This document shows positions 43,986 through 57,050 of a DNA stretch of 64,000 nt, in pieces (position 1 is the stretch's first letter; every line of letters starts with the position of its first letter). The DNA lies in the NCBI GenBank assembly GCA_006844605.1, contig SPJN01000004.1, positions 78,635-142,634 of the forward strand, in the 5' to 3' direction. Under the pieces are notes generated by a model that saw only the letters and a list, made by a program, of their open reading frames with translations, did no database searches and was not told the origin of the DNA. This DNA comes from Hyphomicrobiales bacterium. GTDB taxonomy: Bacteria > Pseudomonadota > Alphaproteobacteria > SPJN01. The translations under genes were made by a program, and so were the position numbers.

Positions 43986-45420
43986 GCTGAACGCCGGCAC
44001 AAGGCATGGCAGGGGCTTCGCCCGTGAATGTCATGCGCAGGGTGCCGTTTTCATAGCTGCCTTCAATCTCACCACCATCAAGGCGGCGCAGGGCAAGCTG
44101 CCCATCAAGGCCATCAATCTGCACGGTCACTTCACCTGATGCAGGCAGATCACTGACCAGTGCGTAAACCGCGCCGTTCTTACCCCTTGTCAGGTTCAGT
44201 TCAGCGCCGTCCTTGGCGATCACAGTGCCGGGACCAAATGGCTTGCTGTCATAGACAGCCTCGTCATTGGCGCGCAGCCAGTCACCAACGGCCAGAATGC
44301 GGCTTGCCTGATCAGCGGGGATCTGGGCATGGCCATCGGGGCCGATGTTCAGCAGATAATTGCCGTTCCGTGCCACAACGCGGGCCAGGTCGGTAATCAA
44401 CTCATCAGATGACAGGAAGTCTTCTTCAGTTTCGGTGCGGTTATAGCCAAAGCCCCAACCAAGACCGCGTGTGGTTTCCCATTTCTTTTCCTGTGGTTCT
44501 TCAAAGAATGAGAATTCAGGCGTGCGGAAATCACTATGGGCGGGTTCTGCCCCCACCAAAGGCCCATCAAATTTTTTCATGGCCAGTTTGCCGAATTGGG
44601 TGGCAAGCCATTTTAGCGGCTGATAGCGGAAATATTTGTTGATCGGTTTGGCTGCCTGCCAACGGTCATTCACCACCCCGTCAGGGACGGCCTTATAATA
44701 ATCCTTGAACAGATCAGCCATGCCATCCATCAGCGGGTAGGAGATGTCGTTCCACAGGACGGACGGTTTATACCGTTCAATCAACTCGCGATAATGCGCA
44801 TCAACATAACGGTTATAGGCGGGGTCTGCGATTGTGGTCGCCAGCGTATCGACAGCAGATTCGATGCTGGTCGTCTCCCACGTCCAATCAAGACCGCCGG
44901 AATAATAGATGCCGAATTTCAACCCTTCGGCACGGACTGCATCTGCCAGTTCGCCGACAATATCGCGTTCTGATGACCAGCCCGGCTTATGGGGGTTTTC
45001 AACGTCAGACGGCCACAATGTGTAGCCATCATGATGCTTGGTCACCAACACAACATATTTGGCACCGGACTGTTTGAACAGCTTGGCCCATTCTTTGGCA
45101 TCGAACCCTTCCAGATTCTTTTCCCAAGGGGCGCGGAAATCCTCATAGGGCGCGTCGCCGTAATTTTCCTTGTGAAATGCGGCGGCAGAACTGCCCTCAA
45201 CCCGCATATTCTGCCAGTACCATTCCACATAGGGATTGTGCTTGATCAGATTTTCGAAGTCATTCTTCAATAGGTCAGGAAAATGCTGACCCTTTTCCGC
45301 ATAGGCGGGAATTGAATAGATGCCCCAATGGATAAAGATGCCGAACTTGCCGCCATCATACCAGTCTGGTACCTGCCGATCCTGAAGGTCCTCAAAACCG
45401 GGTTGAACTTTTTGTGCCAT
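43966..45420 (-). CDS. Alpha-L-fucosidase, glycoside hydrolase family 29
   Basis: GKFGIFIHWGIYSIPAY, YVVLVTKHHDGYTLWPS GH29 signatures. GAGGGGG SD serves the second ATG (MAQKVQ), so start set at 45420. Confidence 0.8.
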   Translation of the reverse strand: MAQKVQPGFEDLQDRQVPDWYDGGKFGIFIHWGIYSIPAYAEKGQHFPDLLKNDFENLIKHNPYVEWYWQNMRVEGSSAAAFHKENYGDAPYEDFRAPWEKNLEGFDAKEWAKLFKQSGAKYVVLVTKHHDGYTLWPSDVENPHKPGWSSERDIVGELADAVRAEGLKFGIYYSGGLDWTWETTSIESAVDTLATTIADPAYNRYVDAHYRELIERYKPSVLWNDISYPLMDGMADLFKDYYKAVPDGVVNDRWQAAKPINKYFRYQPLKWLATQFGKLAMKKFDGPLVGAEPAHSDFRTPEFSFFEEPQEKKWETTRGLGWGFGYNRTETEEDFLSSDELITDLARVVARNGNYLLNIGPDGHAQIPADQASRILAVGDWLRANDEAVYDSKPFGPGTVIAKDGAELNLTRGKNGAVYALVSDLPASGEVTVQIDGLDGQLALRRLDGGEIEGSYENGTLRMTFTGEAPAMPCAGVQLTAAAS

Positions 45421-45560
45421 GACAGAAGCCCCCTCTATCAATGTATTGAACTACAGCAATACCTATGTCATAGATTATTTACCCTGGCAAGCGCGCCATT
45501 TTGACGGAACTGCGGGCAATTGCCTATCGACATGCGTGATCACATGTCTATAACGGCGCC

Positions 45561-47408
45561 ATGGCACCTCCTTTACTGACATGTCGAGAAATCAATTTAA
45601 CCTTTGGTGGCAAGCCTTTGCTGGCTGGCGCGGAACTAATGGTAGAGCCGGGGGCACGCCTGTGTCTGGTTGGCCGTAATGGGTCGGGCAAGTCAACTTT
45701 GCTCAAAATCGCCGCAGGCATGGTGGAACCGGATAATGGGGACATATTCCTGCAGCCAGGCACGACAATCCGCTATTTGGCGCAGGAACCGGACCTAACC
45801 GGGTATGACACTGTGCGTGATTTCGTGCAGGCGGGTTTGGGGCCGACGGACGATCCCTATCGGGCGGACTATCTGCTGGGGTCATTGGATGTGAATCCTG
45901 AGGCTGACCCTGCCAATTTGTCAGGGGGCGAGGTACGCCGTGCTGCCCTTGCGCAAGTGTTGGCACCTGAACCTGACATCCTGATGCTGGATGAGCCGAC
46001 CAACCATCTTGATCTACCCATTATTGAATGGCTGGAAAGTGAGCTGAAGCAGTTTCGCGGCGCGCTGATCCTGATCAGCCATGACCGCCGCTTTTTGGAA
46101 AACCTGACCCGCAGCACCGTTTGGCTCGACCGGGGCCGGACCCGCACGCTGCAACAGGGCTTTGCCAAGTTTGAAGGCTGGCGCGATGAAGTGCTGGCGC
46201 AGGAACAAGAAGCAGCACACAAACTGTCACGCAAAATCGAACGCGAGGAAGACTGGGTACGTTATGGCGTGACCGCGCGCCGGAAACGGAATGTGCGCCG
46301 CATGGCGGGGTTGGATAATCTGCGTGAACAAAAGCGCGAGCTGACAGCCCATAACAGACAGGCACAAGAGAAGGTTAGCTTCTCAGTGAATGAGGGGCAG
46401 AAGTCCGGCAAGGCCGTGATAGAGGCCGAGCATGTCGGCCATAGCTGGCCGGGCAAGCTGATTGCGCAGGATTTTTCTATCCGCATCATGCGGGGTGACC
46501 GGATTGGTCTTGTTGGTCCCAATGGGTCAGGCAAGACCACGATGCTGAACATCCTGACCGGTGCGCTGGCCCCTGATATGGGGAAGGTGACGCTGGGTCA
46601 TAATCTACAAATGCTGACCATTGATCAAAAGCGTGAATCGCTCGACCCCGATACGTCATTGCGCGATGTGTTGACCGGCGGCGGTACCGACCTTGTGCAG
46701 ATCGCCGGTGGTGATGGAGAGGCAGCAGACAGCCGCCGTCATGTTGTGTCCTATATGAAGGACTTTTTGTTTGCCCCTGAACAGGCAGGCACGCCTGTGC
46801 GTGAATTGTCAGGGGGGGAACGTGGCCGGCTGATCCTTGCGCGTGCTTTGTGCAAGCCGTCAAACCTGTTGGTGCTTGACGAGCCGACCAATGATCTTGA
46901 TATGGAAACGCTGGACCTGTTGCAGGAACTGATCGCCGATTACCCCGGTACAGTTTTGCTGGTCAGCCATGACCGTGATTTTCTTGATCGCACGGTTGGT
47001 GCCGTCATCACGACAGAGGGTGAGGGTGATTGGACCGCCTATGCGGGCGGCTATTCAGATATGCTGCGCCAGCGCGGCGAAAAGATACGCGCACAAAACG
47101 CCGAAAAGAAAAAGGCGGTGGAAGCCAAAACGACAAGCGATAAGAATTCCCCCGGTAAATCATCATCCAAACGCAAGCTGTCCTATAAGGAACAATATGC
47201 GCTGGATAATTTGCCGGATGAAATCGCCACTTTGGAAGACAAAATACAAAGCCTGAAGGGTGAGCTTGCCGATCCCAATCTATTCTCAAAAAAGCCTGAG
47301 CGTTTTAACCAGGCGGTAGCGGAATTGGAAACGGCTGAGATTGATTTGGTCGCAAAAGAAGAAGAATGGCTGCGCCTTGAAATGCTGAAAGAAGAACTGG
47401 GCCTTTAG
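45561..47408 (+). CDS. ABC-F family ATPase (Uup/EttA-like, two ABC domains and a C-terminal coiled coil)
   Basis: Two Walker A motifs (GRNGSGKSTLL, GPNGSGKTTML), two LSGGE signatures, no TM domain; 615 aa. Confidence 0.8.
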   Translation: MAPPLLTCREINLTFGGKPLLAGAELMVEPGARLCLVGRNGSGKSTLLKIAAGMVEPDNGDIFLQPGTTIRYLAQEPDLTGYDTVRDFVQAGLGPTDDPYRADYLLGSLDVNPEADPANLSGGEVRRAALAQVLAPEPDILMLDEPTNHLDLPIIEWLESELKQFRGALILISHDRRFLENLTRSTVWLDRGRTRTLQQGFAKFEGWRDEVLAQEQEAAHKLSRKIEREEDWVRYGVTARRKRNVRRMAGLDNLREQKRELTAHNRQAQEKVSFSVNEGQKSGKAVIEAEHVGHSWPGKLIAQDFSIRIMRGDRIGLVGPNGSGKTTMLNILTGALAPDMGKVTLGHNLQMLTIDQKRESLDPDTSLRDVLTGGGTDLVQIAGGDGEAADSRRHVVSYMKDFLFAPEQAGTPVRELSGGERGRLILARALCKPSNLLVLDEPTNDLDMETLDLLQELIADYPGTVLLVSHDRDFLDRTVGAVITTEGEGDWTAYAGGYSDMLRQRGEKIRAQNAEKKKAVEAKTTSDKNSPGKSSSKRKLSYKEQYALDNLPDEIATLEDKIQSLKGELADPNLFSKKPERFNQAVAELETAEIDLVAKEEEWLRLEMLKEELGL

Positions 47409-47611
47409 TCCATCTTCGCAGGGCGGCACAATGGCGCGCTTGCATCCTTTCATTATTGGGCCTATATGCACCCCTAGTTGGGTGCCTTGCAGATGCGCCC
47501 CGCCCGCCGAAAGCCATGGCAATCTGCCTATTGGATGCGCTGATTTAAAAATCGTGGCGCTTCTTTCAGACCTTTATGGAGCGGGAAGGTCAGTTCTGAA
47601 AGGAGTATGTC

Positions 47612-48136
47612 ATGGAGCATCATGACCCTTTTGATAGTATGAAACGCTATGCCAAGCGCCTTGCAAAACAGGCGTCTGAAGACGGCATAGATCTGAAACA
47701 TCGTGAAGCCTTGGCCCAAATTGCCAAACAGATCGGCTTTAACGGTTGGTCCCATGCTGTGCATGTGATCGAAGGGAAAGAAACCCAAGATTACGGTACG
47801 TTGCTTTATGGCGCTGCCGGGGCAACCTATCCCAATATTTGGGAGGCTGATTTGGCACGCGCTCGCGCGATCAGGCAGGATCATGGGGGCATATTATTGC
47901 CCTACAAGACCCAGTTTTTGATTGTGGAGCCAAGCTATTTGGCAGCCCATGATATGCCTGCTGAATTGCCTGAATGGCAGTTGGTGGGTAGGGATTGGAC
48001 CGATCCGCAGGATATGGCGGCACGCACGCGCCTATATGGGTTGCGTGTGGCTGGTCATTTGGCGCGGTTGGGGCAAGTTGACGGGCCGCCCAAACGGGGC
48101 ACACCGTCTGCTGCAATTACCAACGCAGCGCGCTAG
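47612..48136 (+). CDS. Hypothetical protein
   Basis: 174-aa ORF with a strong AAAGGAG SD; no family recognised; followed by a TATGGCGG...CCGCCATA hairpin. Confidence 0.4.
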   Translation: MEHHDPFDSMKRYAKRLAKQASEDGIDLKHREALAQIAKQIGFNGWSHAVHVIEGKETQDYGTLLYGAAGATYPNIWEADLARARAIRQDHGGILLPYKTQFLIVEPSYLAAHDMPAELPEWQLVGRDWTDPQDMAARTRLYGLRVAGHLARLGQVDGPPKRGTPSAAITNAAR

Positions 48137-48206
48137 TGCTGCTACGATTGGGTTAGGTTTATGGCGGGGGGCGCTTGCCTTCCGCCATAATTTTGCGGCC
48201 ATCAGA

Positions 48207-48593
48207 TCAATCGAATGCCGTCGCCAAATAATCAATATAGTCTTCGTCGGTTCCGAAACGTGTACATGATTTGGCGCGTTCCACATATTTGTTAATCGTC
48301 GCCTGCTGTAGGGACCCGGTAGCCTGTGCCGCCGCAAAATCGATTTCAATTTCTTCGGCTGATTTATCGATCAGCAGGCCCCAGAGTTGTTGTTTTTCTT
48401 CTGGTCCGGTACCTATGAATATGTCGTACAACGCGGAATAAACTAGGTCGTGGGGCCTGCCGACATTCTGGGAAAATAGACTTTCATCAAAACCTTCTCG
48501 CTTGGTCAGTAAGTTTAAGGCGTATAAAAAATGTGTGCCGCTTAAACACTGTTGCAAATCCTTAATGGTCGTCCGGTTCCAGTCGCCCCACAC
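48207..48593 (-). CDS. Hypothetical small cytoplasmic protein (low-GC island)
   Basis: 128-aa ORF, GTG start, no signal peptide; last gene of the four-gene minus-strand cassette. Confidence 0.35.
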   Translation of the reverse strand: MWGDWNRTTIKDLQQCLSGTHFLYALNLLTKREGFDESLFSQNVGRPHDLVYSALYDIFIGTGPEEKQQLWGLLIDKSAEEIEIDFAAAQATGSLQQATINKYVERAKSCTRFGTDEDYIDYLATAFD

Positions 48594-48602
48594 AACATTG
48601 AT

Positions 48603-49433
48603 CTAGGTTTGTAGTGTGTCGGGGTTGATCTGAAAATCGAAGCAATAGTCAACTTGGGAAAGTTGGGTTTGTGGGGTGCTGTTTACCGGAAAGGGATACC
48701 ACGCGCCTTTAAGGCGATGTGGTGCAACTTGCGCAATTGTTTTGTCGAGTGTTGCGTGAAGGGCGATAAACTGGACCGGTGTGCCGGTGTCGGGTTTGGA
48801 TGTCATTTGCTGTGTCAGCCCATATGACAGTCCGGTTTTGCAAAGCTTGGCCTTCAGGGCTGCGCGCATAAGATCGTGACTTTGATCGGCCAGCAAAAAT
48901 TCATTTGGGTCATCGCTATATTCTTCGACAAAACTGCCAACAACGCCGGAATAGAAGGCAAGCGTGTATAAGGGAAAATTTGTGAGACGATAGCCGTTGG
49001 GGATGATGACTGCCAACAGCAGCGCAACAATCACTGTCGTTTCCTTATGGGATGACAGTGCCGCAAGGGCACAGATCAAAACGACAGGCAAAATTACGAC
49101 GGCAGAAATGTTGGAAACGATTTGGCCGCCGCCATGCCCAAGCACGTTATGGCCGACGGTCAATAAATACTCTGACACCGCAATTGTCACAAAGGCAACG
49201 ACCAGCACTGTTTTCATTACTTGCGATGGGGCTAGCTTAAACAAAAAACGGGCGACCAGAAACGTAAGCAGGGTGGTCGTTGCCAGTATTGGTATTGATA
49301 GAGCCAGATGCATAACCCCATCGTCGATATGAGAGGCGACTAGGTTTCTGATTGATGGATCGTCCACGTGCTTAACGGCTTTGCCTATTTTCCGCCAGAT
49401 CCATAAATGCAAACAAATAGCTCTGCGGATCAA
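48603..49433 (-). CDS. Hypothetical polytopic membrane protein (low-GC island)
   Basis: N-terminal ~150 aa with 4 predicted TM helices, C-terminal soluble domain. Start uncertain: 49433 overlaps the upstream gene by 62 nt; alternative ATG at 49313. Confidence 0.4.
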   Translation of the reverse strand: MIRRAICLHLWIWRKIGKAVKHVDDPSIRNLVASHIDDGVMHLALSIPILATTTLLTFLVARFLFKLAPSQVMKTVLVVAFVTIAVSEYLLTVGHNVLGHGGGQIVSNISAVVILPVVLICALAALSSHKETTVIVALLLAVIIPNGYRLTNFPLYTLAFYSGVVGSFVEEYSDDPNEFLLADQSHDLMRAALKAKLCKTGLSYGLTQQMTSKPDTGTPVQFIALHATLDKTIAQVAPHRLKGAWYPFPVNSTPQTQLSQVDYCFDFQINPDTLQT

Positions 49434-50121
49434 TGCCTATAAAATGGCATTGCAGAATGTCGTTAACAAAACCGTTTTCGAGATCATCTGTAATTGTGGA
49501 AATGCCATTATTGGCGGCCATGGTGACATCCAAAAAACTCTTTAGTGCAGTCTGTTTTTGTTCCGAAGGGTTCATTGTTGTGAAAAGAAGATTCTGCTCA
49601 CTGTAACGGGTAACCAGAAGTTGACTGACTTCTTTTGTTTCGCTGATCGTATCGAAAAATCCGCGGCCTGCCTTGTCTGACAAAATCAGAATGCTAAGTA
49701 GGGCTTTGCCACATGCATCGATGACTGCTTTTCCTAACGGATAATCATGCCCCGACATGGCGAGTATAAGCATGTCGATATGGGACTGCCGCAAACCTAT
49801 TTCAGCACAACCCAACAGGCCTTCAGGATCGGCGACGTGCGTGATGCTTACTTCGCTTGGATCGATGTCAAATCTGTGTGCAATTTCCTCGATAGACTCC
49901 GCTGATGCTTGCTCTCGAACCGTTGTGAAATTGTCGCTTAGCAGGGTGTTTGCGTATATCAATGAGTCTAGGCATTTAACGGCGATCGCTCGTTTTGCGG
50001 GATCTGTTGCGCTGTCATTTGCGTTTTCATCGGCGAATGTTGCTGGAACGGGCAAAATCAAACAGGCCAGCAATCCGCCGGCGATGAATTTTTTGAAGCG
50101 GGATTGTGTCCTACTCGTCAT
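49372..50121 (-). CDS. Hypothetical secreted protein, paralogue A (4 conserved Cys)
   Basis: Sec signal peptide (LLACLILPVPATFA-DE); alignable by eye with the upstream paralogue (GCAEIGLRQSHIDMLILAMSG vs ECFNIGMPKYEIMIGLQLIS). Confidence 0.45.
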   Translation of the reverse strand: MTSRTQSRFKKFIAGGLLACLILPVPATFADENANDSATDPAKRAIAVKCLDSLIYANTLLSDNFTTVREQASAESIEEIAHRFDIDPSEVSITHVADPEGLLGCAEIGLRQSHIDMLILAMSGHDYPLGKAVIDACGKALLSILILSDKAGRGFFDTISETKEVSQLLVTRYSEQNLLFTTMNPSEQKQTALKSFLDVTMAANNGISTITDDLENGFVNDILQCHFIGIDPQSYLFAFMDLAENRQSR

Positions 50122-50866
50122 TGTCTGTCTCCGCTTCCGTATTGGCGATGTGTTGACTTGCTGCTTTTAGGAACAGCCTTGTAGTGATGCCCACGTCGTC
50201 GCATTGATCAATATGGTCCCTGAATTTGTCCATATCCAAATCAGCGACGGTATGGCTTGCGTAATTACCCTTGTGCGTGGTTTCTGAAATGACGGTCTTA
50301 ACATAGTTTTCGGTTGCGTCATCTGCCGCATCCGGATGCGTAATATTGTGAATTACAGTCAGCGCATAATTGGCCTGATACAACATTTCATCATAGACAC
50401 GAATGCGTGACGCGGCGGGCATATTGCGGTAAACAGCAATGCCAAGAAACTGCGTTGCCGCACCAAGGCAGTTTGTAATATAGCCTTCGACCATTTCGGG
50501 AGGGTCATCGGAAATAAGCTGAAGACCGATCATGATCTCGTATTTGGGCATTCCGATGTTGAAACACTCGACAATGTCGTTAACGGAGAATTCATCGGCT
50601 GTAGCCGGATAATCCACGCCGGGAATATCAGCAATCTTCCGCATCACTTGCTGTGCAAATATTGAATAGGTGAGTGTGCCGTATTGTGGATAATTGTTTT
50701 CCATTTGTGCTGCCAGCCAATCTACCTGTGAGATACAGGCATAATGCTTTTCAACATCTGGCTGTGTTGCCTGCGTAGCCATTGTCGTTCCCGACAGCAC
50801 GGTTAACGCAACCGCAACTGCAGCAACGTAGCGCGGCCATGACTGGATGGATTTTCTTGAAGGCAT
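50111..50866 (-). CDS. Hypothetical secreted protein, paralogue B (4 conserved Cys)
   Basis: Start set at the internal ATG at 50866, giving signal peptide MPSRKSIQSWPRYVAAVAVALTVLSGTTMATQA; paralogous to the adjacent gene. Confidence 0.45.
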   Translation of the reverse strand: MPSRKSIQSWPRYVAAVAVALTVLSGTTMATQATQPDVEKHYACISQVDWLAAQMENNYPQYGTLTYSIFAQQVMRKIADIPGVDYPATADEFSVNDIVECFNIGMPKYEIMIGLQLISDDPPEMVEGYITNCLGAATQFLGIAVYRNMPAASRIRVYDEMLYQANYALTVIHNITHPDAADDATENYVKTVISETTHKGNYASHTVADLDMDKFRDHIDQCDDVGITTRLFLKAASQHIANTEAETDNDE

Positions 50867-51010
50867 TGCCTGCCATAATGTATGGAAAAGTGTGCGCATT
50901 GCTGTCGCCCCCCCGCCGACTTTACGTGCTTTGCAGTGCGCCAAATAGGGGCGCATTGATTCTTGTGAATAATATTGGAATTGGGGCGGGGCAACAACCC
51001 AAGGTGGTAA

Positions 51011-51490
51011 CTATTTGTTCGCGAACCGCGCCTTGACGACTGGGTGGGCACCTTTGCGTGCCACGGGCCGCAGGTTCACAGGCCGGGTTACCAAGCTGCC
51101 ATCTTCAAAGGCAAGCTTCATGGGGCCAAGCCTTTTGCCGCTGTCTTTATCTTCGAAACCAACCTGCGGGCCTTCCTCAGCGAAGGCCCACTTGTCACCC
51201 CATTGGGCCATCGACATTAGGACGGGAAACAGGTCCTTGCCCTTTTGGGTTAGGGTATAGGCATAGCGCGTGCCCTTGTCGCCAATGTCCTGGCGGTCCA
51301 TCACGCCTTGTTCAACCAACATGGCAAGACGGTCTGACAGAATGTTTTTGGCGATACCGGTATGGGTGCGAAACTCGTTAAAGCGCGTTGCGCCGTAAAA
51401 CGCCTCACGCACGACCAGCAATGTCCATGAATCGCCAACAAGGTTGAGCGCACGGGAAATCGGACAGTAATGTTTATGCTGCTTGGTCAT
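51011..51490 (-). CDS. HxlR-family winged-helix transcriptional regulator
   Basis: CPISRALNLVGDSWTLLVVREAF...FNEF typical HxlR/DUF24 signature; ~50-aa C-terminal extension. Confidence 0.75.
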   Translation of the reverse strand: MTKQHKHYCPISRALNLVGDSWTLLVVREAFYGATRFNEFRTHTGIAKNILSDRLAMLVEQGVMDRQDIGDKGTRYAYTLTQKGKDLFPVLMSMAQWGDKWAFAEEGPQVGFEDKDSGKRLGPMKLAFEDGSLVTRPVNLRPVARKGAHPVVKARFANK

Positions 51491-51509
51491 GGCGGCAGTA
51501 TAGAATATT

Positions 51510-51534
51510 TTGGTTGCTATTCAAAACCAAAATA
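51510..51534. promoter_or_regulatory. Perfect 8-bp inverted repeat TTTTGGTT-N9-AACCAAAA (candidate HxlR operator and/or terminator of the upstream cupin gene)
   Basis: Seen directly in the 70-bp spacer between the cupin stop and the hxlR start. Confidence 0.3.
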
Positions 51535-51560
51535 AACAAGTCAAAACCCAAATAGAAAGG

Positions 51561-52118
51561 CTAGTCCTCGCCGATGACGATCAGCTTGGAAATGTCTTCC
51601 CCAGCCGCCTCACATGCACCACGATAAAGCGACAGGGCGGCAGGCGCATCAATGATTGACAGAACATTGCCATCATCATCCACATTCAGGTTGGCGCCAT
51701 AAATGGCAAACCAAACCTCGGTCTCGCCGTCTTGATCTTCTGGTACACATAATGTGTGGAGCGAGCCTGCGGGCTCAAACAAATAGGATCCGGGCTCATT
51801 CACCTCTGTCGGGTATTCCTTATAGAACCATTTGCCTTTCAAGGTGACCGCATAAACCAAGCCGGTGTGATAATGTTTGGTGATTTGGGTGCCCGGTTGA
51901 AAGCGTGTTTTGCTGATCCACAGCCCGATATTCAAATCAACTTGCAGCAACTGCAATTCTGTTCCGTCACCCAATGCGACATAGGGCAATTCTTCATGCT
52001 TGATCAGGCTGGTTACACCATCGACTGATAGCGGCACGGTTGAGGCACCGCGTGCTTCCATTGTGGCGGCCATTTTCGGCAACTGATCGATCAGGGACAC
52101 GGTTTTGGGGGCAGTCAT
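51561..52118 (-). CDS. Cupin-fold protein, 2,4'-dihydroxyacetophenone dioxygenase (DAD)-like
   Basis: HYHTGLVYAVTLKGKWFYKEY...EPAGSLHTL cupin metal-binding His pattern. Start moved to the internal ATG (~52118, MTAPKTVSL); the upstream extension is Arg/Pro-rich junk; coordinate +/-1. Confidence 0.5.
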   Translation of the reverse strand: MTAPKTVSLIDQLPKMAATMEARGASTVPLSVDGVTSLIKHEELPYVALGDGTELQLLQVDLNIGLWISKTRFQPGTQITKHYHTGLVYAVTLKGKWFYKEYPTEVNEPGSYLFEPAGSLHTLCVPEDQDGETEVWFAIYGANLNVDDDGNVLSIIDAPAALSLYRGACEAAGEDISKLIVIGED

Positions 52119-52201
52119 GGCAGCTCCACGAATATTGGAAAAGGGGATGGGGGTAGGGCGGCGGCACACCATCATGTGCGGATGCGCCGCCAAAGGTTTA
52201 A

Positions 52202-53407
52202 CTAGGCAACTTCGAACAGGCCCGCTGCGCCCATGCCGCCACCGATGCACATGCTGACGACGACATATTTTTCGCCGCGCCGTTTGGCTTCGATCAGGGC
52301 GTGGCCTGTGCTGCGCGCACCTGTCATGCCGTAGGGGTGCCCGATTGAAATCGCGCCGCCATTGACGTTATAGCGTTCGGGGTCAATCCCAAGTGTGTCG
52401 CGGCAGTACAGGCACTGGCTGGCGAACGCTTCGTTCAATTCCCACAACCCGATATCGTCAACCTTCAGGCCCGCGCGCTCCAACAGACGGGGCACGGCAT
52501 AGACCGGACCGATGCCCATTTCATCAGGTTCGCACCCGGCAACGGCAAAACCGCGGAAAATGCCAAGCGGATCGATGTTGCGTTTTTCAGCTTCCTTGCC
52601 ATTCATAATAATGCAGGCAGACGCACCGTCAGACATTTGCGAGGCATTGCCAGCGGTGACGAACTTGCCTTGTTTGACAACATTGCCGCCCGCAAAAACC
52701 GGGTTCAGTGCCTGTAGGTTTTCAATGGTTGTACCGGGGCGATTGCACTCATCGCCGGTTACGGTCACTTCCTCTTCGGAAACGTCACCGGTTTCCTTGT
52801 TGACCTTTTTCCATGTGGTGGTCATCGGCACAATTTCATCATCGAATTTTCCCGCGGCCTGTGCAGCGGCGGTGCGTTGCTGGCTTTGCAGGGCATATTC
52901 GTCCTGATATTCGCGGCTGATGCCATACCGATCTGCCACAATCTCTGCCGTTTCGATCATCCCCATGTAAAGGCCGGGATGGCTTTCGATCAGTGACTTC
53001 TCAACCGCTTCATGGCGGTTCATCTTGCCGCTTAACTGAACAAGTGACAGGCTTTCAACGCCGCCCGCGCCCATAACAGGAACACCTTCATTCATCACGC
53101 GGCCAGCGGCTGTTGCAATCGCTTGCAGGCCGGATGAGCAAAAGCGGTTGATTGTGGTGCCGGACGTGGTCACCGGGCACCCGGCGCGCAGGGCTGACAG
53201 GCGCGCAATGTTGGAACCTGTGGCCCCTTCGGGATGGGCGCAGCCCATGACCACATCTTCAACCTCGCCCGGATCAATGCCGGCCCGGTCAATGGCGTGT
53301 TGCAATACATGACCGCCCAATGTGGCACCGTGGGTGTTGTTGAATGACCCGCGGCCTGATTTGGCAAGGCCTGTGCGGGCGGTTGATACGATGACGGCTT
53401 CGGTCAT
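52202..53407 (-). CDS. Acetyl-CoA C-acyltransferase (thiolase)
   Basis: [11 protein letters not shown] (Cys active site), [30 protein letters not shown] thiolase signatures. Confidence 0.85.
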
Positions 53408-55050: not shown

Positions 55051-56601
55051 TTAAAGCACCTTCAGCAATTGTTCGAAGGCCCAAACCATAGGTGCGGTGT
55101 ACCACGGGGCCTCAGGCTCTGCCGCCGGGTCTACCATGTATAGCGTCCGCTGGGCAGCCAGTTCCTGTTCCAGCTGGCGCGTGATCTGCTCGTAACCGGG
55201 CTGGCCATGCAGGCTGATCTGTTCATTCGGGTCAGCTTGCAGGTCAAATAATTCCCATTCCCCGATGCGGTAATAGTGGATCAGTTTCCACCGGTCTGTC
55301 CTGACGCCATAATGACGGGGCACATTGTGGAAGCCGGGGTGTTCATAATAATGATAATAGATCGCCTGCCGCCAATCTGCCGCGACGCCTTGGGTCAGTG
55401 GCAGTATGGACTGGCCATGCATTGGCTGATCCGGCGTTACATTCGCGGCATCAAGCAAGGTCGGTGCAAGGTCGATATTCTGCACCAGCGCATCATTGAT
55501 GCTGCCCGGTTTGATGTGACCGGGCCATTGCATCAGCAGCGGCACACGGGTTGATATGTCATACATCCAGCGTTTGTCGAACCAGCCATTTTCGCCCAGA
55601 TAAAATCCCTGATCGGATGTGTAAAGGATAATTGTATCGTCGGTTAGCCCGGCAGCATCAACCGCGTCCAGCAAGCGGCCGATGGACCGATCCATCCCCT
55701 CAACCGATGCCAAATAGGATTTGATGTAGCGCTGATATTTCCAGCGGGTCAGATCATCACCCTTTAGTTGCGCGTTTTCGAATGCCTGATTGCCGGGGCC
55801 GTAGGTTTCCTCAAAAACTTTCTTTTGCGCTTCGGTCAGGTAGGAGGGGACAGATAACTTCACATCCAAACGGGTCATGTGATCGTCGATGCGCATTTTG
55901 TTTTGGCTGCGCGCGGTACCTTTTTTGGCATGGGCTGAAAACAAGGTGGCAGGTTCGGCAACCGTGGCGGCCTCGTCCCAGTTTTGCATTTCTTCAATTG
56001 ATGGCAGCCAATCGCGGTGGGGGGCCTTGTGCTGCACCATCAACAAGAACGGCTTGTCACCCTCCCGCTTGTTGGTCAGCCAGCGCAACGCCTTGTCGGT
56101 AATTTCGTCAGTTGTGTAGCCTTCTGTTTGTTCAACGCCGTTCGGGCTGCGGAAGCTGGCATTATAATAGGTGCCTTGTTCCCCCACATTGTCGATCACG
56201 GCCCAGTCATCAAATCCTGTGGGGTCGCTGTAAAGGTGCCATTTGCCGAACAGCGCGGTTTGATAGCCTGCCGCCTGTAACAATTTGGGGAAGGTTTGCT
56301 GTGTGCCATTAAATGCGCCGCCCCATTCATTGACCATGTGGCCATGAACATGGCTGTGGACCCCGGTCAGCAAGGTGGCGCGGCTGGGACCGCATACAGC
56401 GTTCCCGACAAAGGCATTGTTGAACCGCATGCCGCCTTGGGCCAGCCGATCAATTGCAGGTGTATTGATCAGGTTTGAGCCATAGGAGGAGATGGCAGTC
56501 GTCGCATGATCGTCTGAAAATATCACGATGATGTTCGGGCGTGCTGCTGCCCAACCGGATGTGAGTGCCAACAAGGCAGTTATAAGTGCGGTGCGCAGCA
56601 T
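55051..56601 (-). CDS. Sulfatase (formylglycine-dependent, Cys-type)
   Basis: Signal peptide; NIIVIFSDDH, the C-x-P-S-R motif (AVCGPSRATLLTG), GKWHL. Confidence 0.8.
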   Translation of the reverse strand: MLRTALITALLALTSGWAAARPNIIVIFSDDHATTAISSYGSNLINTPAIDRLAQGGMRFNNAFVGNAVCGPSRATLLTGVHSHVHGHMVNEWGGAFNGTQQTFPKLLQAAGYQTALFGKWHLYSDPTGFDDWAVIDNVGEQGTYYNASFRSPNGVEQTEGYTTDEITDKALRWLTNKREGDKPFLLMVQHKAPHRDWLPSIEEMQNWDEAATVAEPATLFSAHAKKGTARSQNKMRIDDHMTRLDVKLSVPSYLTEAQKKVFEETYGPGNQAFENAQLKGDDLTRWKYQRYIKSYLASVEGMDRSIGRLLDAVDAAGLTDDTIILYTSDQGFYLGENGWFDKRWMYDISTRVPLLMQWPGHIKPGSINDALVQNIDLAPTLLDAANVTPDQPMHGQSILPLTQGVAADWRQAIYYHYYEHPGFHNVPRHYGVRTDRWKLIHYYRIGEWELFDLQADPNEQISLHGQPGYEQITRQLEQELAAQRTLYMVDPAAEPEAPWYTAPMVWAFEQLLKVL

Positions 56602-57050
56602 GTGATCCCCCCGGATGCTGTAACTGGTTTGATTGTGATCATCCTAAATTGATTAACTAATCAAGAAAACCGAAAAGTCGAATCAACTTGTTTGCAGTTT
56701 GGGGGAGGTGAGGGCGTATCGCATAGGTGCGACATAAAGATCATCACATATTCTGTAAGGAGTGTTATGGCCGTTTCGCTTGAATTGGGCGATCAAGAAA
56801 AAAGAATACACATCAGCTATTTACGGGCGTTTCGGCTGCGACAGTCAGGCGCTTGACGCTAAGTGACAAAATATCATATAAGCACATATCGGCTGACAAA
56901 AAATCATTCAGACTTGACTTACTTGCCGGTAACAATTACCTAGGGGCTTGTAAGTAGGAGCCGCGCTGAAGCGGCCACGGGCTGGAAACGTAACAAAATA
57001 AAAGCTATCGGCATGACGCAGGTAGCAATAACAGAAGAAGAGGCGAGATC

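Follow-up and report, generated by a model that had tools for sequence, protein, structure and literature searches.

The systems closest to the locus described here are the regulons of the MarR/DUF24 (HxlR) family of thiol-sensing transcription factors, such as YodB, CatR, HypR, and HxlR of Bacillus subtilis. This family has a conserved N-terminal cysteine, which serves as the redox sensor in HypR, YodB, and CatR, and the known cargo of these regulators consists of cytoplasmic detoxifying enzymes, namely azoreductase, nitroreductase, dioxygenase, and flavin oxidoreductase (PMC3351151). Here we analysed a stretch of 64,000 nucleotides from a Hyphomicrobiales bacterium (assembly GCA_006844605.1, contig SPJN01000004.1, positions 78,635 to 142,634; hereafter, the window), in which an hxlR gene is followed on the same strand by a cassette of three genes, A, B, and C-D (48207-50899), with a low content of guanine plus cytosine (GC). 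Regulator and cargo probably constitute a chromosomal operon confined to a narrow lineage and seen so far in two related alphaproteobacterial lineages. The operon is best filed as an HxlR/DUF24-type regulon with a new exported cargo, and the cargo family matches nothing known. The anatomy of the locus as described below is, in our judgement, very probably correct.

The locus resembles the MarR/DUF24 regulons in that its first gene scores above the Pfam threshold for HxlR and encodes an N-terminal cysteine in a 'CP' motif, and in that a palindrome lies over the promoter of this gene, as expected for an autoregulated winged-helix regulator. It differs from them in having a regulator with one cysteine only and a cargo that is a predicted exported, apparently non-enzymatic new family; control of the array by the regulator is putative. 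Disulfide-stabilised helical exported proteins are represented by the Helicobacter cysteine-rich Sel1-like repeat proteins and by LprI/DUF1311-type domains. The likeness of our family to these is that it is predicted to be all-helical and exported and has mainly cysteines at its conserved positions; unlike them, it has no match to Sel1, DUF1311, or any other Pfam entry at E values up to 1, and its cysteine spacing of 55-57/32/88-89 is long-range and not that of a short repeat. Small exported tandem paralogs with variable copy number and rapid divergence are shared, finally, with immunity arrays of the Tai/Tsi/Tli type of type VI secretion systems (T6SS) or of the orphan type ('acquired interbacterial defence'). 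In contrast to such arrays, the locus shows no sequence match to them, no annotated neighbouring effector or secretion gene, a strict alternation of A and B, and a stress-type regulator in first place. The features of the locus are as follows, in the direction of transcription of the operon.

51510-51530, overlapping the hxlR promoter: palindrome TTGGTT-N9-AACCAA, a candidate HxlR operator with a putative function.
51497..51524, minus strand: candidate promoter upstream of hxlR from a promoter scan (-35 TTGAAT, 16 nt, -10 TATACT).
51011..51490, minus strand: hxlR, encoding an HxlR/MarR-DUF24 winged-helix regulator of 159 aa (Pfam PF01638).
50900..51010, minus strand: hxlR-A spacer of 111 nt, with a hairpin at 50934-50958 that has no U-tract on the minus strand and a G7 tract at 50908-50914.
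50111..50899, minus strand: gene A, A-type, 262 aa; predicted signal peptide of ~41 aa; mature protein of 24.7 kDa, pI 4.4, with an acidic C-terminal tail.
49372..50121, minus strand: gene B, B-type, 249 aa; predicted signal peptide of ~30 aa; mature protein of 24.0 kDa, pI 4.5.
48207..49367, minus strand: gene C-D, ancestrally a single gene of 386 codons, which starts with GTG at 49367 or, alternatively, with ATG at 49313.
48603..48605, minus strand: in-frame amber codon TAG, which splits C-D into a 254-aa membrane fragment (236 aa from the ATG) and a 128-aa open reading frame (ORF).
48159..48190: stem-loop between the convergent C-D and Glyoxalase_8-like genes, a likely terminator at the end of the operon.
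47612..48136, plus strand: convergent Glyoxalase_8-like gene, with a weak Glyoxalase_8 match.

Two sequences are used below for comparison. L003, a metagenome-assembled genome (MAG) named 'Alphaproteobacteria bacterium', is the one close relative found by a scan of GTDB genomes with the HxlR protein. L009 is a 78-kb contig from Logan SRR25010646 that is 99.0% identical to positions 38207-59315 of the window and has the same gene order.

Genes A and B encode paralogous proteins with four shared cysteines, in agreement with the initial annotation of the window. The cysteines of A are at positions 55, 112, 144, and 233 (spacing 57/32/89) and those of B, all in the mature part, at 50, 105, 137, and 225 (55/32/88); in a global alignment of A and B the four are in register. 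Plain BLASTP hardly connects the two proteins. The profile-profile alignment of the A-type and B-type sequences has an E value of 4.3e-5 over 200 columns, and protein A of the window scores 11.0 bits against the B-type hidden Markov model (HMM), a score reached by none of 1000 shuffled sequences. In a six-frame search of 105 kb, the cross-matches at E < 0.02 were family members only, and no extra family copies were found elsewhere in the window, L003, or L009. Across eight sequences, six of them distinct, the only invariant residues of the mature proteins are the four cysteines and one glycine, and both the cysteines and their spacing are kept at pairwise identities of 13-48%.

Export of these proteins is predicted from their N-termini. 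By eye and with a hydropathy scan, we assigned to A and B the signal peptides that had been suggested for them earlier (basic N-terminus, hydrophobic stretch, AxA-like site), and all six distinct members carry either such a predicted peptide, with its basic N-terminus, hydrophobic core, and AxA-like site, or a lipobox, the latter being LAGC in place of the AxA-like site in L003 A2. The mature proteins are 214-239 aa long, have a pI of 4.3-5.1, and contain exactly four cysteines besides the lipobox cysteine of L003 A2. Since every product has a predicted signal peptide, a lipobox, or transmembrane (TM) helices, the view of the cassette as an envelope or periplasmic module of unknown function holds.

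An 18-residue motif, D-L-x-x-C-x-x-I-G-I, occurs at both Cys2 and Cys4 of A and B. Internal duplication of the whole domain was considered and rejected, as only this motif around Cys2 and Cys4 aligns. The 12-nt stretch GTTAACGACATT (coding strand, encoding VNDI) is identical at 49456-49467 and 50573-50584; it precedes Cys4 of B and Cys2 of A, which are non-equivalent cysteines, and fits the motif recurring at Cys2 and Cys4.

The true start of gene A is the ATG at 50899, giving 262 aa and not 281, because in relatives a G-tract shorter by 2 nt shifts the upstream ATG out of frame. The tract at 50908-50914 is G7 in the window and G5 in both L009 and L001 (SRR19733637), and this 2-nt difference determines whether the ATG at 50956 is in frame with gene A. 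NCBI annotation gives the protein 281 aa in this genome and 262 or 223 aa in other assemblies; gene A should be annotated as beginning 19 codons later than it is at present.

Downstream of A and B, the initial annotation placed two further genes, one for a membrane protein and one for a separate 128-aa cytoplasmic protein, and so counted four genes in the cassette. There are three, the last of which is split by a nonsense codon. On the minus strand the order of reading frames is hxlR (51490..51011), A (50899..50111), B (50121..49372), the membrane ORF (49367..48603), and the 128-codon ORF (48593..48207). The genes are thus co-directional with overlap, as had been noted: the frames of A and B overlap by 11 nt, and only 4 nt separate the stop codon of B from the GTG that opens the next gene. 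The TAG codon is in frame with the 128-codon ORF, three codons ahead of its GTG (48593), and by eye no Shine-Dalgarno-like sequence precedes this GTG. An exhaustive HMMER search with the membrane ORF retrieved a 368-aa protein, encoded on L009 and 99% identical, with Tyr where the window has the stop; the one further match, repeat protein P0004 (E 5e-4), was judged spurious. At the C-D junction the sole difference between L009 and the window is G/C at 48603, L009 reading TAC (Tyr), and L001 likewise has TAC at the amber position. Other fused alleles found by cluster look-up are a 386-aa protein of an NCBI MAG (MEN8722852.1) and a 368-aa protein of a 41-kb Logan contig. In all, three other assemblies encode fused C-D products of 368-386 aa (P0003, P0015, P0018), and L001 has no stop at this position either, so that Tyr is encoded there in all four other assemblies of the species seen. 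Annotation as a pair of 236 and 128 aa is limited to the NCBI assembly or assemblies whose products match the C and D of the window residue for residue. From these comparisons, the membrane ORF and the 128-aa ORF are the halves of one gene, and the stop in the C-D of the window would mark a nonsense allele of recent origin, unless it is a base-calling error. The annotation of two 'hypothetical proteins', 236 and 128 aa long, should be corrected accordingly.

The membrane character of the N-terminal part of C-D stands, with the correction that this part is not a gene of its own. A hydropathy scan gives four strong TM segments at approximately residues 21-43, 50-72, 87-105, and 108-126 of the 386-aa form (~48984-49307), with one cysteine within TM3; loops 1 and 3 hold positive charges, which fits an N-out/C-out topology. 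The C-terminal soluble region of ~220 aa has four cysteines with a spacing of 66/32/94, to be compared with 55-57/32/88-89 in the A/B family. Where the family has C-x-x-[IV]-G after Cys2 and Cys4, C-D has 'CFDFQ' at Cys2 and 'CTRFG' at Cys4. Random placement of four cysteines yields such a spacing with p ~2e-4 in a post hoc test. By hhalign, the family profile aligns with this region along 133 columns at E 0.019, with a probability of 2.4%, and the alignment brings Cys2, Cys3, and Cys4 into register. Against the family HMM, C-D scores 5.1 bits, matched by 7 of 3000 shuffles, and its E value in the six-frame search of 105 kb is 3.7. We consider it fairly likely that the C-terminal region is a third, diverged, membrane-anchored copy of the A/B domain. 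If so, it would be periplasmic and not cytoplasmic, and the amber codon would cut the domain between Cys2 and Cys3. The separate cytoplasmic protein proposed earlier is not upheld: its frame continues that of the membrane ORF with one TAG between, every other assembly seen has TAC there, and the C-terminal part of C-D resembles the exported A/B domain.

The gene directly upstream of the cassette, on the same strand, was correctly assigned to the HxlR family. Its product matches PF01638 with 75.9 bits (cut-off 20.8; E 2.3e-21) over positions 1-87 of the 91 in the model. The single cysteine, Cys9, is in an N-terminal 'CP' motif (HYCPISRA) eight residues ahead of the Pfam match and is kept in the L003 ortholog. 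The palindrome TTGGTT-N9-AACCAA is the sole perfect match in the 64 kb, and the number of sites with up to two mismatches is not above chance. Upstream of L003 hxlR, the -35 and -10 elements and both half-sites are kept, one half-site with a single mismatch. A second HxlR-type palindrome was sought upstream of gene A and none was found. Neither was a canonical minus-strand terminator found between hxlR and A, which argues for co-transcription of the two genes; in the predicted fold of the spacer, the G7 tract pairs with a C-rich stretch just past the hxlR stop (z -2.5). We infer that hxlR-A-B-CD may form one autoregulated transcript.

At the other end, the hairpin noted at the border of the cassette is present, with 14-nt arms and predicted energies of -19.6 kcal/mol on the minus strand (z -3.1) and -24.7 kcal/mol on the plus strand (centroid; z -2.3); a T-run follows it on the plus strand only. 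L003 has a different, stronger hairpin with a T-rich tail after the last array gene (-23.7 kcal/mol, z -5.8). A search of positions 47300-51700 against Rfam gave nothing real.

Database searches agree with the initial statement that the cassette resembles no recognisable defence or toxin family: matches are absent from Pfam, NCBIfam, PADLOC, PHROGs, and other curated families, and the cargo has no match to a well-characterised family in Pfam, NCBIfam, or PDB. With all products and the eight family members as queries, Pfam and NCBIfam returned sub-threshold noise only, such as DUF6455 (E 0.012, with the 128-aa ORF), PSD3, DMT_6, and 'antisigma' (in the signal-peptide region). Seven family members and the neighbouring Glyoxalase_8-like protein had no PADLOC match at E up to 0.1, PHROGs gave nothing, and a profile search of PDB with the family alignment was empty to an E value of 10. 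When JGI metagenomes and IMG/VR were scanned for patterns with the B-type and A-type alignments, no relatives were detected, and tblastn produced no match for B and the fused C-D (P0015) against plasmids or for A against phages. For A and B, a word-index protein search retrieved 98%-identical copies only; for the 128-aa ORF, it retrieved nothing. Negative results of this search call for caution. With B as the query, it missed L003 B1 (P0020), a cluster representative in the collection that is 46% identical to B over 230 aa and shares with it several words of 6-10 residues. Given this miss, and given that the query of the exhaustive search was the membrane ORF, the rarity of the A and B family is weakly established.

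Comparison with L003, the single related species compared, shows that the cassette is not absent from this site in the relative. There the slot between hxlR and the Glyoxalase_8-like gene contains four family genes, arranged A-B-A-B and overlapping by 4 nt, but not a TM gene, and the GC content of the array is ~48-49% vs ~55%. The synteny is wider, comprising sulfatase, hexapeptide transferase, ..., hxlR, the array, Glyoxalase_8, ABC-F, and fucosidase. At the protein level, HxlR is 85% identical between the two genomes, the Glyoxalase_8-like protein 80%, and ABC-F 86-92%, vs 22-28% for the A-type genes and 29-46% for the B-type genes; the window's A is 27-28% identical to L003 A1, and its B is 46% identical to L003 B1. 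Divergence of A and B is therefore far above that of their neighbours. The slot is thus conserved between an 85%-identical regulator and an 80%-identical downstream neighbour, and the presence of the same family in it means that the locus predates the split of the two lineages.

Two further differences between these genomes lie outside the array. The synteny breaks exactly at the upstream edge of hxlR (window 51561-53407 vs L003 6256-9977): the interval from the hexapeptide transferase to hxlR contains enoyl-CoA hydratase, thiolase, and a ChrR-like cupin in the species of the window and biotin carboxylase and carboxyltransferase, on the opposite strand, in L003. The ABC-F region of L003 (14404-16238) matches residues 1-143 of the window protein in one frame and residues 143-614 in another, which suggests a frameshift or an assembly error in the MAG.

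The low GC of the cassette had been estimated by eye. Windowed calculation shows that the drop is real, with 47.6% for 48207-50899 vs 54.3% for the whole window, but of ~7 points (48 vs 54-58%) and not from the high 50s to the low-to-mid 40s. Windows of the same size have a mean of 54.3% with a standard deviation (sd) of 2.0%, and the lowest of them starts at 48201, so that the lowest GC of the window is at the cassette, 3.3 sd below the mean. GC at third codon positions (GC3) is 47-52% in the four cassette ORFs vs 54-66% in the genes for ABC-F, Glyoxalase_8, HxlR, cupin, and thiolase; hxlR as a whole, at 55.6%, is like the flanks. The fall begins directly past the hxlR stop and ends at the 48159-48190 hairpin. 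There are further low-GC pockets at 56600-56999 (44.5%) and 45200-45599 (46.5%). By the gene calls of L009, the former falls for the most part between the divergent FMO-like and sulfatase genes, and the latter covers the fucosidase/ABC-F gap with the adjoining gene ends; both are probably AT-rich promoter regions rather than islands.

The following explanation would account for these observations. A regulator of the HxlR/MarR-DUF24 type, with an N-terminal sensing cysteine, would be the first gene behind a conserved promoter with a palindromic operator, and would probably be co-transcribed with the following genes up to the terminator hairpin. The cargo would be a new protein family, acidic, all-helical, ~24 kDa in size, and periplasmic after export, with the four cysteines paired in two structural disulfides, of which Cys1-Cys2 and Cys3-Cys4 are the simplest choice. 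A and B may form a translationally coupled heterodimer, as the two subtypes are always adjacent with overlapping or abutting frames. C-D would use its four TM helices to anchor in the inner membrane what is probably a third copy of the domain, with both termini out and the domain periplasmic, and may have just been inactivated in this genome by the amber mutation. The products would serve in the envelope as binding or protective proteins and not as enzymes, and would be synthesised when HxlR senses thiol-reactive stress (an oxidant, electrophile, or aldehyde); the absence of polar or catalytic residues that are conserved, the fast evolution, and the variable copy number and make-up of the arrays suggest such a role. 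As a whole, the picture of an HxlR-headed operon of periplasmic binding or protective proteins is plausible but tentative. The proposed function itself, binding or protective and controlled by HxlR, is possible but rather doubtful at the level of sequence analysis. An undescribed two-subunit periplasmic protection or immunity system, switched by HxlR, consisting of A/B pairs and the anchored copy, and with a fold that has no known relatives, would be a speculative extension that we consider unlikely.

Several points weigh against this explanation. HxlR regulators often control divergent or upstream genes; in the window a cupin gene lies just upstream of hxlR, and the array may not be an HxlR target. 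The predicted signal peptides depend on visual inspection and hydropathy. In statistical terms C-D is weakly linked to the A/B family, the link depending largely on a cysteine spacing noticed post hoc, and a weak fifth hydrophobic stretch, FPLYTLAFYSGVVGSFV, could put the C-terminal region of C-D in the cytoplasm. Both structure models, an all-helical AlphaFold2 (AF2) model of B from a four-row alignment (predicted local distance difference test score, pLDDT, 56.5) and a model of the fused C-D alone (pLDDT 41.1), are of low confidence, and a fold search with the B model found nothing. Finally, the within-species ratio of nonsynonymous to synonymous rates (dN/dS) is ~0.26, by a rough estimate with a 3:1 site ratio from the L009 counts, and this value below 1 gives no direct sign of an arms race.

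The recent horizontal acquisition proposed in the initial annotation would make the cassette a genomic island, a foreign low-GC module inserted beside hxlR. Its position as the GC minimum of the window, its low GC3, the borders of the drop at the hxlR stop and the hairpin, and the apparently great rarity of the family in databases would all suit such an origin. These are outweighed by the presence of the same family at an equally low GC in the same slot of L003, between flanks that are 80-92% identical in protein sequence. Moreover, no integrase or transposase was seen among the called genes within ~10 kb on each side, the nearest tRNA is > 24 kb away, and direct repeats flanking the cassette were sought and none found. 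Relative to L009, the 2.7-kb cassette has 24 single-nucleotide polymorphisms, the same density as in the whole 21-kb alignment (0.98%). GC at first and second codon positions of the cassette ORFs is also reduced, so that amino-acid composition accounts for part of the GC drop. Recent insertion is thus improbable and the low GC is a property of the gene family itself; ancient acquisition, or repeated exchange of cassettes at a fixed slot, is possible. Relaxed selection could produce low GC and a stop codon as well, and the ORFs might then be functionless, decaying, or mis-called; the nonsense mutation in one of three genes, the fast divergence, and the lack of homologs of known function are in line with that. 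Yet every assembly seen has intact A and B genes, C-D is interrupted in the lineage of the window only, the four cysteines and their spacing are retained at the low identities given above, export signals are predicted in six of six distinct members, and coupled overlapping starts are kept in L003. Synonymous changes exceed nonsynonymous ones: relative to L009, 13 synonymous and 10 nonsynonymous differences lie in the cassette, in addition to the nonsense change, vs 15 and 6, respectively, in the five flanking genes. These numbers are small; they indicate that the cassette is probably under purifying selection, perhaps somewhat relaxed, and decay of the genes is very improbable.

If the genes are functional, the main alternative roles are immunity and redox chemistry. 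Arrays of orphan immunity genes are a known phenomenon (for example, PMC10470768). The cassette could be an orphan array of periplasmic immunity or inhibitor proteins that has diversified in an arms race with toxins of competitors (T6SS amidases or lipases, bacteriocins), as its products are tandem paralogs predicted to be small, acidic, exported, disulfide-stabilised, and helical, its copy number and content differ between genomes (A-B-CD vs A-B-A-B), and it diverges far faster than its neighbours. However, no toxin, effector, or secretion-system gene is annotated within ~10 kb on each side, where the neighbours are metabolic and transport genes, and no match to any immunity, defence, or toxin family exists in Pfam, NCBIfam, PADLOC, or PHROGs. 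Strict alternation of A and B speaks for a unit of two subunits and not for independent immunities, the dN/dS estimate shows no sign of positive selection, and, to our knowledge, a stress-type HxlR regulator at the head of the operon is not typical of immunity arrays; we regard this reading as rather unlikely. Cysteines are among the sole invariant residues of the family, one lies inside TM3 of C-D, and the regulator is from a thiol-sensing family, all of which might point to a periplasmic thiol-redox module of the Dsb- or Scs-like kind, with catalytic or electron-carrying cysteines, a TM protein that passes electrons across the membrane, and expression matched to thiol stress by HxlR. Against this, the cysteines are 32-89 residues apart with no CxxC or vicinal motif, neither Pfam nor NCBIfam gives a thioredoxin-fold, DsbD/CcdA, or DoxX match, the low-confidence model of B is all-helical, and the L003 array lacks a TM protein. 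Such a module is highly improbable, and an HxlR-headed operon of exported binding or protective proteins remains our preferred, if tentative, explanation.

The genes around the cassette (38207-59315, the part covered by L009) include those for a sulfatase, an alpha-L-fucosidase, a TonB-dependent receptor, an ABC transporter of the iron-siderophore type, and a sulfotransferase, a context that suggests a bacterium degrading sulfated polysaccharides.

The locus is a well-delimited piece of genomic dark matter and has no bearing on a long-standing open question. It offers natural comparisons between genomes with an intact and an amber-split third gene and between those with the A-B-CD and A-B-A-B arrangements. 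If the proposed regulon is confirmed, a new exported protein family would join the cargo of HxlR/DUF24 regulators, so far described as cytoplasmic detoxifying enzymes. If the A/B pairs and the anchored copy do form a two-subunit periplasmic system switched by HxlR, they would represent an inducible defence of a new kind, with which polysaccharide-degrading alphaproteobacteria protect the envelope from chemical or biological attack.

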